From IMG/VR virus record IMGVR_UViG_2681813269_000006: 5,339 bases of DNA, one strand, 5' to 3'. Of this stretch, positions 1 through 5,339 are shown one piece after another; position 1 is the stretch's first letter; each line of letters starts with the position of its first letter. Source of the stretch: a virus (lineage: Duplodnaviria > Heunggongvirae > Uroviricota > Caudoviricetes). The notes beneath the pieces were generated by a model. That model searched no databases, had not been told where the DNA came from, and saw nothing but the letters and a program-made list of their open reading frames with translations. A program made the position numbers and the translations under genes.

Positions 1-1
1 A

Positions 2-370
2 GGAGTGTCCGTTAAACTCAGGCTACCTCAGTCTGCTGATTTGAGTCGCTACAGTGGCACGGTGGTTAACCGTCCGACGTTTTTTGCTTTTGCAAAAGGC
101 GCGGGTGTGATGGGGGAAGCGGGACCTGAAGCCATTCTGCCACTGCGTCGCGGTGCTGATGGTAAGCTGGGGGGTGTGGCGGATACTGGTGGTTCAGGCA
201 TGGTGATGTTTGCCCCGCAGTACAACATTGAGATCAATAACGATGGCACGAACGGGCAGATAGGTCCGGCTGCCCTGAAGGTGGTTTATGACCTCGGGAA
301 AAAAGCGGCCGCGGACTTTATGCAACAGCAGGCCCGTGATGGTGGCCGGTTAAGTGGAGCATACCGGTAA
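2..370 (+). CDS. H: Tail tape measure protein (gpH-like), C-terminal fragment; 5' end lies upstream of the window (copy 1, diverged type)
   Basis: Frame is open from the window edge to TAA at 368-370. Translation contains the tape-measure-like stretch NRPTFFAFAKGAGVMGEAGPEAILPL and the motif INNDGTNGQIGPAALK, which recurs at the end of the second H-like segment (2839..2886). The stop overlaps the ATG of the downstream M gene (TAATG), the H/M arrangement I recall for lambda. Confidence 0.8.
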   Translation, partial: GVSVKLRLPQSADLSRYSGTVVNRPTFFAFAKGAGVMGEAGPEAILPLRRGADGKLGGVADTGGSGMVMFAPQYNIEINNDGTNGQIGPAALKVVYDLGKKAAADFMQQQARDGGRLSGAYR

Positions 371-699
371 TGGAGACGTTTCACTGGAAAGTGCGCCCGG
401 ATATGAATGTGGTATCAGAGCCGAAAGTGGTGACAGTGAAGCTGGGCGATGGTTATGAACAGCGTCGTGCGGCGGGACTGAATAACCAGTTGTCGACTTA
501 CAGCGTGAAGATACGTGTTCGTAAAGGTGAACACCCATTTTTAAAAGCCTTTCTGGAACGGCACGGTGGCGTCCGCGCATTTCAGTGGACGCCACCTTAT
601 GACTGGAAGCCGATCAGGGTGGTTTGTCGTAAATGGTCGGCAAGCGTGGGGGCGTTGTGGGTAACCATAACGGCAGATTTTGAACAGGTCGTGGCATAG
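370..699 (+). CDS. M: Minor tail protein M, copy 1 (diverged homolog)
   Basis: 109-aa ORF, the same length as copy 2 (2973..3302). By my hand alignment 59 of 109 residues are identical to copy 2, including conserved blocks GDGY, TYSV, HGG, WTPPY and the C-terminal FEQVV. Position directly after the H stop matches lambda gene order. Confidence 0.85.
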   Translation: METFHWKVRPDMNVVSEPKVVTVKLGDGYEQRRAAGLNNQLSTYSVKIRVRKGEHPFLKAFLERHGGVRAFQWTPPYDWKPIRVVCRKWSASVGALWVTITADFEQVVA

Positions 700-708: not shown

Positions 709-1407
709 ATGCAGGATATTCCACAGGAAACACATCATGAGACGACACGCCTCACTCAGTCAGCCCAGGTGGTGCTCTGGGAAATCGATCTGACAGAGGT
801 CGGTGGAGAACGTTATTTTTTCTGTAATGAGCAGAACGAAAAAGGTGAGCCGGTTACCTGGCAGGGGCGGCAGTATCAGGCATACCCCATTCAGGGGACG
901 GGATTTGAACTGAACGGCAAGGGCAGTGCTGCCCGTCCGACACTGACGGTTTCTAACCTGCACGGAATGGTCACCGGGATGGCGGAAGACCTGCAGAGTC
1001 TGGTCGGCGGAACGGTGGTCCGGCGTAAGGTTTACGCCCGTTTTCTGGATGCGGTGAACTTCGTCAACGGAAACAGCGACGCCGATCCGGAACAGGAGGT
1101 GATCAGCCGCTGGCGCATCGAGCAGTGCAGCGAACTGAGCGCGGTCAGTGCCTCTTTTGTGCTGGCCACACCAACGGAGACGGATGGCGCGGTTTTCCCG
1201 GGGCGTATCATGCTGGCGAATACCTGTATGTGGACTTACCGTTCTGATGAGTGTGGTTACACGGGCAGGGCAGTGGCTGACGAGTTCGACAAACCAACGA
1301 CGGATATCCGGAAGGACAAATGCAGCAAGTGTATGCGCGGGTGTGAGTTGCGCAACAATACCGGTAATTTCGGCGGTTTCCTTTCCATCAATAAACTTTC
1401 TCAGTAA
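709..1407 (+). CDS. L: Minor tail protein L, copy 1 (about 88% aa identity to copy 2)
   Basis: 232-aa ORF, the same length as copy 2. Preceded by AGGAGG at 698..703 with a 5-nt spacer. The C-terminal cysteine cluster C-x9-C-x22-C-x2-C-x3-C (codons at 1225..1344) is conserved with copy 2. About 28 substitutions and no indels relative to copy 2. Confidence 0.9.
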   Translation: MQDIPQETHHETTRLTQSAQVVLWEIDLTEVGGERYFFCNEQNEKGEPVTWQGRQYQAYPIQGTGFELNGKGSAARPTLTVSNLHGMVTGMAEDLQSLVGGTVVRRKVYARFLDAVNFVNGNSDADPEQEVISRWRIEQCSELSAVSASFVLATPTETDGAVFPGRIMLANTCMWTYRSDECGYTGRAVADEFDKPTTDIRKDKCSKCMRGCELRNNTGNFGGFLSINKLSQ

Positions 1408-1411
1408 ATCC

Positions 1412-2155
1412 ATGACACAGACAGAATCAGCGATTCTGGCGCACGCCCGGCGATGTGCGCCAGCGGAGTCGTGTGGCTTCGTGGTAAGAACGCCGGAGGG
1501 AGACAGGTATCTTCCCAGCGAGAATATCTCCGGTGAGCCGGAGGAACGGTTCCGGATGGCTCCGGAGGACTGGCTGCGGGCACAAATGCAGGGTGAGATT
1601 GTGGCGCTGGTCCACAGTCATCCCGGTGGTCTGCCCTGGCTGAGTGAGGCTGACCGGCGGCTGCAGGTGCAGAGTGATTTGCCGTGGTGGCTGGTCTGCC
1701 GGGGGACGATTCATAAGTTCCGCTGTGTGCCGCATCTCACCGGGCGGCGCTTTGAGCACGGGGTGACGGACTGTTACACGCTGTTCCGGGATGCTTATCA
1801 TCTGGCAGGGATTGAGATGCCGGATTTTCATCGCGGGGATGACTGGTGGCGTAACGGTCAGAATCTCTATCTTGACAATATGGAGGTGACGGGTTTTTAC
1901 CGTGTCGCACTGACAGAGGCACAGCCGGGCGATGTGCTGCTGTGCTGTTTTGGTTCATCGGTGCCGAATCATGCCGCCATTTACTGCGGTGACGGCGGGC
2001 TGCTGCACCATATTCCTGAACAACTGAGCAAACGAGAGAGGTACACCGACAAATGGCAGCGACGCACACACTCCCTCTGGCGTCACCGGGCATGGCGCGC
2101 ATCTGCCTTTACGGGGATTTACAACGATTTGGTCGCCGCATCGACCTTCGTGTGA
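1412..2155 (+). CDS. K: Tail assembly protein K, copy 1; N-terminal JAMM/MPN-like domain plus C-terminal NlpC/P60-like domain
   Basis: 247-aa ORF starting 4 nt after the L stop. It contains HSHPGGLPWLSEAD (H-x-H-x7-S-x2-D, a JAMM signature) with an upstream AESCGF glutamate. The C-terminal half has Cys/His candidates typical of NlpC/P60 (GVTDCYTLF, VPNHAAIY). About 20 substitutions relative to copy 2. The ORF-track start at 1148 is an upstream extension that overlaps L in another frame and is not used here. An internal in-frame ATG at 1556 corresponds to a shorter 199-aa form. Confidence 0.85.
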   Translation: MTQTESAILAHARRCAPAESCGFVVRTPEGDRYLPSENISGEPEERFRMAPEDWLRAQMQGEIVALVHSHPGGLPWLSEADRRLQVQSDLPWWLVCRGTIHKFRCVPHLTGRRFEHGVTDCYTLFRDAYHLAGIEMPDFHRGDDWWRNGQNLYLDNMEVTGFYRVALTEAQPGDVLLCCFGSSVPNHAAIYCGDGGLLHHIPEQLSKRERYTDKWQRRTHSLWRHRAWRASAFTGIYNDLVAASTFV

Positions 2156-2486
2156 AAACGGGGGCTGAAGCCATCCGGGCACTGGCCACACAGCTCCCGG
2201 CGTTTCGTCAGAAACTGAGCGACGGCTGGTATCAGGTACGGATTGCCGGGCGGGACGTCAGCACGTCCGGGTTAACGGCGCAGTTACATGAGACTCTGCC
2301 TGATGGCGCTGTGATTCATATTGTTCCCAGAGTCGCCGGGGCCAAGTCAGGTGGCGTATTCCAGATTGTCCTGGGGGCTGCCGCCATTGCCGGATCATTC
2401 TTTACCGCCGGAGCCACCCTTGCAGCATGGGGGGCAGCCATTGGGACCGGTGGTATGACCGGCATCCTGTTTTCTCTCGGTGCCAG
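1999..2486 (+). repeat. Direct repeat copy A: 488-nt block with perfect identity to 4593..5080 (3' end of K plus 5' 434 nt of I)
   Basis: Base-by-base comparison of the two copies. The last mismatch upstream is at 1998 vs 4592 (G vs A). Identity ends at 2486/5080, where copy A continues into H-like sequence and copy B continues into I. Confidence 0.85.
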
Positions 2487-2976
2487 ACTGCTTAAGCAGG
2501 CAATGGTGGGGATTGTCGGGAGTATCGGCAGCGCCATTGGCGGGGCTGTTGGTGGCGGCGCATCCGCGTCAGGCGGTACAGCCATTCAGGCCGCTGCGGC
2601 GAAATTCCATTTTGCAACCGGAGGATTCACAGGAACCGGCGGCAAATATGAGCCAGCGGGGATTGTTCACCGTGGTGAATTTGTCTTCACGAAGGAGGCA
2701 ACCAGCCGGATTGGCGTGGGGAATCTCTACCGGCTGATGCGCGGCTATGCCACCGGTGGTTATGTCGGTACACCGGGCAGTCTGGCTGACAGCCGGTCGC
2801 AGGCGTCCGGGACGTTTGAGCAGAATAACCATGTGGTGATTAACAACGACGGCACGAACGGGCAGATAGGTCCGGCTGCTCTGAAGGCGGTGTATGACAT
2901 GGCCCGCAAGGGTGCCCGTGATGAAATTCAGACACAGATGCGTGATGGTGGCCTGTTCTCCGGAGGTGGACGATGA
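2053..2976 (+). CDS. Chimeric ORF: tail assembly protein I N-terminal 144 codons fused in frame to a tape-measure (gpH-like) C-terminal 163 codons
   Basis: Nucleotides 2053..2486 are identical to 4647..5080, the 5' part of I copy 2. From 2487 the sequence leaves I and encodes RLLKQAMVGIVGSIGSAIGG...INNDGTNGQIGPAALKAVYDMARKGARDEIQTQMRDGGLFSGGGR, which parallels the H C-terminus at 2..370. It ends with a TGA overlapping the ATG of M copy 2 (ATGA at 2973..2976). Whether it is expressed or functional is unknown. Confidence 0.55.
   Translation: MAATHTLPLASPGMARICLYGDLQRFGRRIDLRVKTGAEAIRALATQLPAFRQKLSDGWYQVRIAGRDVSTSGLTAQLHETLPDGAVIHIVPRVAGAKSGGVFQIVLGAAAIAGSFFTAGATLAAWGAAIGTGGMTGILFSLGARLLKQAMVGIVGSIGSAIGGAVGGGASASGGTAIQAAAAKFHFATGGFTGTGGKYEPAGIVHRGEFVFTKEATSRIGVGNLYRLMRGYATGGYVGTPGSLADSRSQASGTFEQNNHVVINNDGTNGQIGPAALKAVYDMARKGARDEIQTQMRDGGLFSGGGR
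2962..2966 (+). promoter_or_regulatory. Shine-Dalgarno sequence (GGAGG) for M copy 2, embedded in the 3' end of the H-like coding sequence
   Basis: GGAGG lies 6 nt upstream of the ATG at 2973; it encodes the terminal SGGGR of the H-like segment. Confidence 0.55.
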
Positions 2977-3302
2977 AAACCTTCCGCTGGAAAGTGAAAC
3001 CCGGTATGGATGTGGCTTCGGCCCCTTCTGTAAGAAAGGTGCGCTTTGGTGATGGCTATTCCCAGCGAGCGCCTGCCGGGCTGAATGCCAACCTGAAAAC
3101 GTACAGCGTGACGCTTTCTGTCCCCCGTGAGGAGGCCACGGTACTGGAGTCGTTTCTGGAAGAGCACGGGGGCTGGAAATCCTTTCTGTGGACGCCGCCT
3201 TATGAGTGGCGGCAGATAAAGGTGACCTGCGCAAAATGGTCGTCGCGGGTCAGTATGCTGCGTGTTGAGTTCAGCGCAGAGTTTGAACAGGTGGTGAACT
3301 GA
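2973..3302 (+). CDS. M: Minor tail protein M, copy 2 (lambda-like)
   Basis: 109-aa ORF MKTFRWKVKPGMDVASAPSV..., which I recall as matching lambda gpM. GGAGG at 2962..2966 lies 6 nt upstream of the ATG. Its stop overlaps the L start (TGATG at 3300..3304). Confidence 0.9.
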   Translation: MKTFRWKVKPGMDVASAPSVRKVRFGDGYSQRAPAGLNANLKTYSVTLSVPREEATVLESFLEEHGGWKSFLWTPPYEWRQIKVTCAKWSSRVSMLRVEFSAEFEQVVN

Positions 3303-4000
3303 TGCAGGATATCCGGCAGGAAACACTGAATGAATGCACCCGTGCGGAGCAGTCGGCCAGCGTGGTGCTCTGGGAAATCGACCTGACAGAGGTCGGTGGA
3401 GAACGTTATTTTTTCTGTAATGAGCAGAACGAAAAAGGTGAGCCGGTCACCTGGCAGGGGCGACAGTATCAGCCGTATCCCATTCAGGGGAGCGGTTTTG
3501 AACTGAATGGCAAAGGCACCAGTACGCGCCCCACGCTGACGGTTTCTAACCTGTACGGTATGGTCACCGGGATGGCGGAAGATCTGCAGAGTCTGGTCGG
3601 CGGAACGGTGGTCCGGCGTAAGGTTTACGCCCGTTTTCTGGATGCGGTGAACTTCGTCAACGGAAACAGTTACGCCGATCCGGAGCAGGAGGTGATCAGC
3701 CGCTGGCGCATTGAGCAGTGCAGCGAACTGAGCGCGGTGAGTGCCTCCTTTGTACTGTCCACGCCGACGGAAACGGATGGCGCTGTTTTTCCGGGACGTA
3801 TCATGCTGGCCAATACCTGCACCTGGACCTATCGCGGTGACGAGTGCGGTTATAGCGGTCCGGCTGTCGCGGATGAATATGACCAGCCAACGTCCGATAT
3901 CACGAAGGATAAATGCAGCAAATGCCTGAGCGGTTGTAAGTTCCGCAATAACGTCGGCAACTTTGGCGGCTTCCTTTCCATTAACAAACTTTCGCAGTAA
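3302..4000 (+). CDS. L: Minor tail protein L, copy 2 (lambda-like); putative iron-sulfur cluster-binding tail tip protein
   Basis: 232-aa ORF MQDIRQETLNECTRAEQSASVVLWEIDL..., which I recall as matching lambda gpL. Conserved C-terminal cysteine cluster (codons 3818..3937). Confidence 0.92.
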   Translation: MQDIRQETLNECTRAEQSASVVLWEIDLTEVGGERYFFCNEQNEKGEPVTWQGRQYQPYPIQGSGFELNGKGTSTRPTLTVSNLYGMVTGMAEDLQSLVGGTVVRRKVYARFLDAVNFVNGNSYADPEQEVISRWRIEQCSELSAVSASFVLSTPTETDGAVFPGRIMLANTCTWTYRGDECGYSGPAVADEYDQPTSDITKDKCSKCLSGCKFRNNVGNFGGFLSINKLSQ

Positions 4001-4005
4001 ATCCC

Positions 4006-4749
4006 ATGACACAGACAGAATCAGCGATTCTGGCGCACGCCCGGCGATGTGCGCCAGCGGAGTCGTGCGGCTTCGTGGTAAGCACGCCGGAGGGGGAAAG
4101 ATATTTTCCCTGCGTGAATATCTCCGGTGAGCCGGAGGCGTATTTCCGTATGTCGCCGGAAGACTGGCTGCAGGCAGAAATGCAGGGTGAGATTGTGGCG
4201 CTGGTCCACAGCCACCCCGGTGGTCTGCCCTGGCTGAGTGAGGCCGACCGGCGGCTGCAGGTGCAGAGTGATTTGCCGTGGTGGCTGGTCTGCCGGGGGA
4301 CGATTCATAAGTTCCGCTGTGTGCCGCATCTCACCGGGCGGCGCTTTGAGCACGGTGTGACGGACTGTTACACACTGTTCCGGGATGCTTATCATCTGGC
4401 GGGGATTGAGATGCCGGACTTTTATCGTGAGGATGACTGGTGGCGTAACGGCCAGAATCTCTATCTGGATAATCTGGAGGCGACGGGGCTGTATCAGGTG
4501 CCGTTGTCAGCGGCACAGCCGGGCGATGTGCTGCTGTGCTGTTTTGGTTCATCAGTGCCGAATCACGCCGCAATTTACTGCGGCGACGGCGAGCTGCTGC
4601 ACCATATTCCTGAACAACTGAGCAAACGAGAGAGGTACACCGACAAATGGCAGCGACGCACACACTCCCTCTGGCGTCACCGGGCATGGCGCGCATCTGC
4701 CTTTACGGGGATTTACAACGATTTGGTCGCCGCATCGACCTTCGTGTGA
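4006..4749 (+). CDS. K: Tail assembly protein K, copy 2 (lambda-like); JAMM/MPN plus NlpC/P60 domains
   Basis: 247-aa ORF starting 5 nt after the L stop, with the same HSHPGGLPWLSEAD motif and NlpC/P60-like Cys/His as copy 1. The internal ATG at 4150 would give the 199-aa form that I recall as the database annotation for lambda K. The longer form is preferred here because it includes the AESCGF glutamate expected for a complete JAMM fold. Confidence 0.88.
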   Translation: MTQTESAILAHARRCAPAESCGFVVSTPEGERYFPCVNISGEPEAYFRMSPEDWLQAEMQGEIVALVHSHPGGLPWLSEADRRLQVQSDLPWWLVCRGTIHKFRCVPHLTGRRFEHGVTDCYTLFRDAYHLAGIEMPDFYREDDWWRNGQNLYLDNLEATGLYQVPLSAAQPGDVLLCCFGSSVPNHAAIYCGDGELLHHIPEQLSKRERYTDKWQRRTHSLWRHRAWRASAFTGIYNDLVAASTFV

Positions 4750-5080
4750 AAACGGGGGCTGAAGCCATCCGGGCACTGGCCACACAGCTCCCGGCGTTTC
4801 GTCAGAAACTGAGCGACGGCTGGTATCAGGTACGGATTGCCGGGCGGGACGTCAGCACGTCCGGGTTAACGGCGCAGTTACATGAGACTCTGCCTGATGG
4901 CGCTGTGATTCATATTGTTCCCAGAGTCGCCGGGGCCAAGTCAGGTGGCGTATTCCAGATTGTCCTGGGGGCTGCCGCCATTGCCGGATCATTCTTTACC
5001 GCCGGAGCCACCCTTGCAGCATGGGGGGCAGCCATTGGGACCGGTGGTATGACCGGCATCCTGTTTTCTCTCGGTGCCAG
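4593..5080 (+). repeat. Direct repeat copy B: perfect-identity partner of 1999..2486
   Basis: Same comparison as for copy A; offset between copies is 2594 nt. Confidence 0.85.
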
Positions 5081-5318
5081 TATGGTGCTCGGTGGTGTGG
5101 CGCAGATGCTGGCACCGAAAGCCAGAACTCCCCGTACACAGACAACGGATAACGGCAAACAGAACACCTATTTCTCCTCACTGGATAACATGGTTGCCCA
5201 GGGCAATGTTCTGCCGGTTCTGTACGGTGAAATGCGCGTGGGGTCACGCGTGGTTTCTCAGGAGATCAGCACGGCAGACGAAGGGGACGGTGGTCAGGTT
5301 GTGGTGATTGGTCGCTGA
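4647..5318 (+). CDS. I: Tail assembly protein I, copy 2 (complete); N-terminal ubiquitin-like region followed by a Gly/Ala-rich hydrophobic segment
   Basis: 223-aa ORF MAATHTLPLASPGMARICLYGDL...VVVIGR, which I recall as matching lambda gpI. Its start lies 103 nt inside the 3' end of K in a different frame, the known K/I overlap. TGA at 5316..5318 is followed by what should be the I-J intergenic region. Confidence 0.9.
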   Translation: MAATHTLPLASPGMARICLYGDLQRFGRRIDLRVKTGAEAIRALATQLPAFRQKLSDGWYQVRIAGRDVSTSGLTAQLHETLPDGAVIHIVPRVAGAKSGGVFQIVLGAAAIAGSFFTAGATLAAWGAAIGTGGMTGILFSLGASMVLGGVAQMLAPKARTPRTQTTDNGKQNTYFSSLDNMVAQGNVLPVLYGEMRVGSRVVSQEISTADEGDGGQVVVIGR

Positions 5319-5339
5319 TGCAAAATGTTTTATGTGAAA

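Follow-up and report, generated by a model that had tools for sequence, protein, structure and literature searches.

An apparent tandem duplication of lambda tail-tip genes that very probably reflects the joining of two prophage contigs at a single N

The window analyzed here, a 5,339-nt stretch of tailed phage DNA from the IMG/VR virus record IMGVR_UViG_2681813269_000006, contains lambda tail-tip genes in two collinear sets, one before and one after position 2486, as determined from the list of open reading frames and a comparison of the window with itself (Table 1). The first set begins within the tape measure gene H and runs through M, L, and K into the 5' part of I, and the second covers the same genes through to a complete I. 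We use "S-type" here as a name for the defective, IS-truncated lambdoid prophage behind positions 1–2219 of the window, and "lambda-type" for the sequences that follow phage lambda itself.

Table 1. Features of the window and their positions, counted from its first nucleotide.
Feature	Position	Strand	Remarks
IS3-family element end, truncating S-type H	1–30	.	Left contig end
H 3' remnant (tape measure), S-type, contig 1	2–370	+	ORF 5–370; collinear with S-type loci
M, S-type	370–699	+	109 aa; PF05939 match
L, S-type	709–1407	+	232 aa; PF05100 match
K, S-type (T99 variant)	1412–2155	+	PF14464 and PF00877; last 157 nt inside shared block
Native S-type/lambda-type shared stretch (3' of K, 5' of I)	1999–2219	+	221 nt; three-way comparison
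I 5' part, set 1	from 2053		ORF list and self-comparison
Lambda-type I 5' sequence, right end of contig 1	2220–2486	+	267 nt; duplicates 4814–5080
Scaffold gap	2487	.	"N" in CXNR01000256.1, "A" in window
H 3' end, lambda-type, start of contig 2	2488–2976	+	From lambda coordinate 12615 (codon 692)
M, lambda-type	2973–3302	+	Exact product in 13,848 blocks
L, lambda-type	3302–4000	+	ORF list; lambda alignment
K, lambda-type, 247 aa	4006–4749	+	Exact product in 9,893 blocks
488-nt block, second occurrence, normal lambda-type context	4593–5080	+	Self-comparison
I, lambda-type, complete	4647–5318	+	Contig end falls in I–J spacer

Close relatives of the left half were found in ten IS-rich chromosomes of 4.6–4.9 Mb, which match positions 1–2255 at 2247/2255 nt (99.65%), the first 27 nt included. 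These ten S-type chromosomal loci begin with the IS, which is followed by 'H, M, L, K, I, J, and lom, and over positions 1–2219 their sequence differs from that of the window by only four bases (at 807, 1021, 1706, and 1714). Bases 1–27 of the window are identical in all ten chromosomes, where genes for HTH_Tnp_1/rve transposases lie directly upstream, and the terminal ...TCA at 28–30 is one that we take to be compatible with an IS3-type end. An IS3-family element has truncated H, about 370 nt short of the end of the gene. The same IS/H junction is present at all ten S-type chromosomal loci examined, which indicates an old, lineage-wide insertion, and it had no match in the species-representative genome set. 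The left end of the contig lies at this element, and the IS is the reason that the contig stops there.

Searches of complete E. coli genomes and of phages gave a best match to positions 1–2486 of 95%, to mEp460/cdtI-like relatives, and this match started at base 28. The 5,426 complete E. coli genomes searched contained no S-type element of >95% identity. In the assembly collection, the S-type M (109 aa) and L (232 aa) products were found exactly in 2,286 and 2,352 blocks, respectively, which puts the S-type in about 2,300 assemblies, always with the regular order 'H–M–L–K–I–J. The host of the S-type prophage is probably Shigella, based on the match of the left half to a remnant typical of IS-rich 4.6–4.9 Mb chromosomes and on the absence of the S-type at >95% identity from those complete E. 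coli genomes.

Only four recorded contigs, CXNR01000256.1 among them, encode exactly the K product of the first set; the draft assemblies with this K variant are GCA_001256515.1, GCA_900159865.1, GCA_900159845.1, and GCA_900159905.1. Relative to the ten large S-type chromosomes, the differences in K, at 1706 (codon 99) and 1714 (codon 101), amount to the replacement A99T and one synonymous change, and the T99 K protein marks a small sub-lineage. Short-patch gene conversion of the first set toward the second was considered for the four differing positions (807, 1021, 1706, and 1714) and found to be unnecessary. At 1706 and 1714 no conversion is needed because the K in question is a natural S-type variant that also occurs in a normally ordered draft (L033), and at 807 and 1021 because the changes are synonymous and the sites are conserved in the lambda-type.

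The right half of the window (positions 2488–5339) differs from lambda 12615–15465 at 23 positions (99.19% identity) and is 99.7% identical to a prophage in E. coli TUM18781. Contig 2 is part of an ordinary lambda-like prophage, starting within H and covering the rest of the genes through I. In the assembly collection, the lambda-type M product was found exactly in 13,848 blocks, with the order H–M–L–K–I–J wherever listed, and the lambda-type K product in 9,893. The upstream order was H–M–L–K in 10/10 places listed for this K, and it was followed by I–J in nine of the ten, I being absent from the other (L044).

Comparison of the two gene sets bore out several properties that an earlier note, made from the letters of the window alone, had described. 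Positions 1999–2486 are identical to 4593–5080 at 488/488 positions, at a fixed offset of 2594, and the next longest identical runs at that offset are of 110, 64, and 42 nt. The amino acid substitutions that the note had put at about 28 in L and about 20 in K were counted as 28/232 and 20/247, respectively. The tail of H and M are highly diverged, as the note had stated, with ~55–60% nucleotide identity in 100-nt windows; 50 of the 109 residues of M differ, and 37 of 72 aligned residues are identical between the S-type and lambda-type H tails. Overall nucleotide identity between the two sets was 208/351 aligned columns for M, 591/699 for L, and 536/587 for K up to position 1998.

What could not be reproduced was a steady fall of divergence toward the junction, which the note had seen as a gradient ending in the perfectly identical block. 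Sliding windows of 100 nt revealed a mosaic with repeated dips, the course of which is non-monotonic: identities in successive windows were 77, 94, 82, 97, 89, 72, and 79% across L, and 95, 85, 97, 100, 83, 90, and 100% across K. The apparent gradient toward the breakpoint would be a consequence of the contig join described below. The related proposal that the pattern is a signature of lambdoid mosaicism holds in part, in that mosaicism explains the abrupt alternation of identity and 221 of the 488 nt, but not the gradient, the breakpoint, or the tandem arrangement.

The make-up of the 488-nt block emerged from a three-way comparison of the first set, an S-type locus (L003), and the second set. 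At positions 1999–2219 all three are identical (221 nt); from 2220 onward the S-type locus diverges, at 56–70% identity, and the window still equals the second set. The block is composed of 221 nt of native identity between the two prophages and 267 nt of lambda-type I sequence foreign to the S-type, very probably one and the same lambda-type DNA written twice. The exact 221-nt run from 1999 is common to the S-type locus and 14 of the 20 lambda-like loci, in unrelated genomes, and the full 488 nt occurs exactly in seven ordinary lambda-like prophages. Between the native S-type and lambda-type sequences, identity is 100% at 1999–2219, 56–70% in the middle of I, and 94–97% in the 3' part of I, a profile in which 1999–2219 is an island and there is no slope toward the junction. 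The note had suggested that the left-hand parent might already have shared the 3' part of its K and the 5' part of its I with the right-hand parent, and this is correct for the 221 nt at 1999–2219 but not for the 267 nt at 2220–2486, where the S-type reaches only the lower identity given above. A second conserved island, at 5097–5296 (94–97% relative to L003), lies just before the right contig end and could likewise mislead short-read assembly.

The deposited record from which the window derives, CXNR01000256.1 of the draft assembly GCA_001256515.1 (locus L034), is identical to the window at 5,338 of 5,339 positions. The sole difference falls at 2487, where the record has N and the window has A. 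The contig has no other N, and this one coincides with the break in collinearity. The A at this position contrasts with a T in lambda I, a T in lambda H, and a T in 10/10 lambda-like loci. The breakpoint that the note had placed next to the identical block was therefore never sequenced, being an N in the source record for which the window has an A that fits no parent. The substitution of A for N hides the scaffold join from readers of the letters alone.

On the two sides of the join, I ends at lambda 15206 and H starts at lambda 12615, with zero homology or microhomology between them. The join, which reads I codon 144, then AGN, then H codon 692, preserves the frame and yields a 307-aa I–H ORF at 2053–2976. 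This spurious fusion ORF was created by the change of N to A, and neither it nor the novel joint is backed by sequence. A 300-nt query spanning the joint, each half of which is common, had no hit that spanned the joint in 5,426 complete E. coli genomes and 50,697 phage records, and a 41-mer across the joint had no match in viral, genome, and metagenome contigs. Exact look-ups of the I–H fusion protein from its three possible starts (307, 294, and 274 aa) were also empty, as is expected since the deposited product carries an unknown residue at the codon with the N.

Two further consequences that the note had drawn from the block, namely that gene conversion between the tandem copies had homogenized it and that it is a substrate for recA-dependent loss or amplification, both depend on the junction, which is a scaffold gap represented in the deposited record by a single N. 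The lambda-type tract at 2220–2486 replaces S-type sequence, and it is only through that N that the copies are physically linked. Other origins of the join were also considered and rejected. An AflII or cloning junction is not indicated, because the CTTAAG located 5 nt to the right of the join is native to lambda (lambda 12618) and the join is off the cut site. A de Bruijn-graph chimera through a k-mer common to both sides of the I/H join was dismissed since these sides have no homology; the switch from S-type to lambda-type within 1999–2219 is of this shared-k-mer kind, unlike the I/H join.

A parallel case was found in another draft with the same K variant. In contig FUBD01000174.1 (L032) the only N, at position 4072, is the joint of a different pseudo-duplication. 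The order in this contig is S-type 'H–M–L–K, shared block, a foreign I with the 5' portion of a J, N, shared block, and S-type I–J–lom. In this pseudo-duplication (2320–4326 of L032) the foreign insert interrupts an S-type prophage that is otherwise intact, and it is flanked by a duplicated 254-nt K/I block. The right-hand contig starts at the equivalent of window position 1999, which is the first base past the last single-nucleotide difference between S-type and lambda-type, and the flanks are collinear S-type sequence, 99.96% identical over 5,419 nt. In L033, a sister draft, the genes follow the ordinary S-type order and there is no N. That two drafts have two different joints, each on the only N of its contig, implies repeat-induced false joins and not an inherited rearrangement.

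We consider it very probable that the tandem duplication is an assembly artefact over ordinary lambdoid mosaicism, in which two prophage contigs were joined at one N. The strain, probably a Shigella, would have two lambda-family tail regions, an S-type 'H–M–L–K–I–J–lom and that of an ordinary lambda-like prophage, with the two prophages presumably at separate chromosomal sites. Contig 1 would have been built along the S-type, into the 221-nt repeat, and out along the lambda-type I for 267 nt to position 2486, and the scaffolder would have set contig 2 (2488–5339) behind it, leaving the single N. The software steps were probably read-pair scaffolding and then base-by-base extension of the gap edges, as in programs of the SSPACE/GapFiller type, and such extension without closure would leave arbitrary contig ends against a residual N. 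SSPACE and GapFiller have been described as greedy, in a manner that "can lead to false joins", and joins are written as N, which denotes "an unknown number of bases" (Page et al., PMC5320598). In GapFiller the edges of a gap grow one base at a time and closure occurs only if the extensions overlap (PMC3446322).

The tail-tip genes are present as a single copy in normal order at all S-type chromosomal loci (10) and lambda-like loci (20) examined, with no duplications (IS insertions and the locus without I, L044, aside), and the two source loci are linked by identical runs, of 221 nt and of 110 nt. Both the tandem duplication and the in-frame I–H fusion ORF would follow from the contig join. 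Two points count against a scaffold join. A scaffolder requires some read-pair support, and pairs that would link the end of I to the start of H are unaccounted for; in addition, a frame kept by chance has a likelihood of about 1 in 3, yet it is also what would be expected of a real fusion under selection.

In its features the locus resembles known false joins or duplications of paralogous or allelic loci by scaffolders and gap-fillers, as in the SSPACE/GapFiller-type improvement of Velvet-type short-read assemblies: the join is marked by a gap character, the redundant contig end is identical to the interior of its neighbor, the two similar loci have in common exact repeats that exceed the read length, the event recurs at another joint, and it is missing from finished genomes. 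It shares with lambdoid mosaicism the sharp alternation of near-identical and diverged segments, the boundaries of which are reproducible across independent genomes. The difference is that the mosaic here is between two separate prophage types and not between tandem copies, and it is otherwise in no way unusual. On paper, the arrangement also equals a lambda tandem duplication, with a 2,592-bp direct repeat of lambda 12615–15206 and a novel joint. It differs from one in that the joint is an N, the left copy belongs mostly to another prophage type, and the joint is in no other record.

A real, diverged tandem duplication would require that a lambda-like phage in which lambda 12615–15206 had been duplicated by illegitimate recombination recombined with the resident S-type via the 221 nt, and that one base remained uncalled. 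Tandem duplications of lambda via illegitimate recombination are classically known, which counts in its favor. The preserved frame would also suit such an event, as would the scaffolder's placement of the contigs side by side, with the smallest of gaps, and the lambda-type character of both flanks of the join, which are identical over 267 nt as if they had arisen in one lambda-like genome. If it were true, two diverged M–L–K tail-tip sets would be present in tandem along with an in-frame I(1–144)–H(692–853) fusion protein. However, we regard this explanation as extremely unlikely, since a random ambiguous base would fall on the joint, as the contig's only N, by a coincidence of about 1 in 5,339, and the second draft repeats the pattern of an N at the joint with another joint. 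Moreover, the join is without microhomology, the joint is missing from every collection searched, and all other S-type and lambda-like loci examined are single-copy.

The contigs might instead be truly adjacent, with sequence hidden in the gap, for example an IS in a hybrid S/lambda I beside a second, H-truncated lambda-like remnant. A single N is silent on the true length of a gap (PMC5320598), and in these IS-rich chromosomes IS copies break contigs, as at the left contig end, which is an IS end. That end, however, keeps 27–30 nt of the IS, whereas the ends at 2486 and 2488 have no non-phage bases; an IS of 0.8–1.3 kb is normally beyond the reach of short-insert pairs, and such an arrangement occurs at 0/10 S-type chromosomal loci, making hidden sequence very unlikely. 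There is also a version in which only the join at the N is false, and the strain has a genuine hybrid prophage with an S-type K and a lambda-type I that arose by homologous exchange in 1999–2219. Exchange in conserved stretches is what makes lambdoid mosaics, the 221-nt block would be a suitable substrate, and L032 likewise passes from an S-type K into a non-S-type I. In that contig, however, the S-type I–J follows the N, so that the foreign I is one of two mutually exclusive continuations, and the S-type I follows K in L033 and in all complete chromosomes. Positions 1900–2486 are matched at ≤98.8% in complete E. coli genomes, and the 221-nt repeat exceeds the typical short-read length, hence a wrong branch is expected there; we consider a genuine hybrid unlikely. 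The N on the joint, the second draft, the lack of foreign bases at the contig ends, and the uniform single-copy order disfavor all three of these alternatives relative to a scaffold join.

The duplication is almost certainly not a real feature of this DNA, and the underlying biology is routine lambdoid mosaicism. The replacement of an N by a normal base was enough to produce a convincing tandem duplication, a gene fusion, and a block of perfect identity at the breakpoint. In windows taken from short-read scaffolds, gap characters should be kept or flagged, and duplications that have their joint on an N, or a second copy whose start coincides with a repeat boundary, are best presumed to be false joins pending inspection of the reads.

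A separate observation concerns the lambda-type K. Compared with the lambda reference (NC_001416/J02459), the window carries an additional G at position 4140 (lambda 14267), which fuses an upstream ORF with the annotated 199-aa K into a 247-aa K that has a Prok-JAB (MPN) domain ahead of the NlpC/P60 domain. Among the lambda-like loci examined, the majority have a K called at 247 aa. The interval aligned to 2488–5339 is 2,852 nt long in re-sequenced lambda records, versus 2,851 nt in the reference, and the 1982 lambda reference therefore appears to be one base short, lacking the G at 14267.
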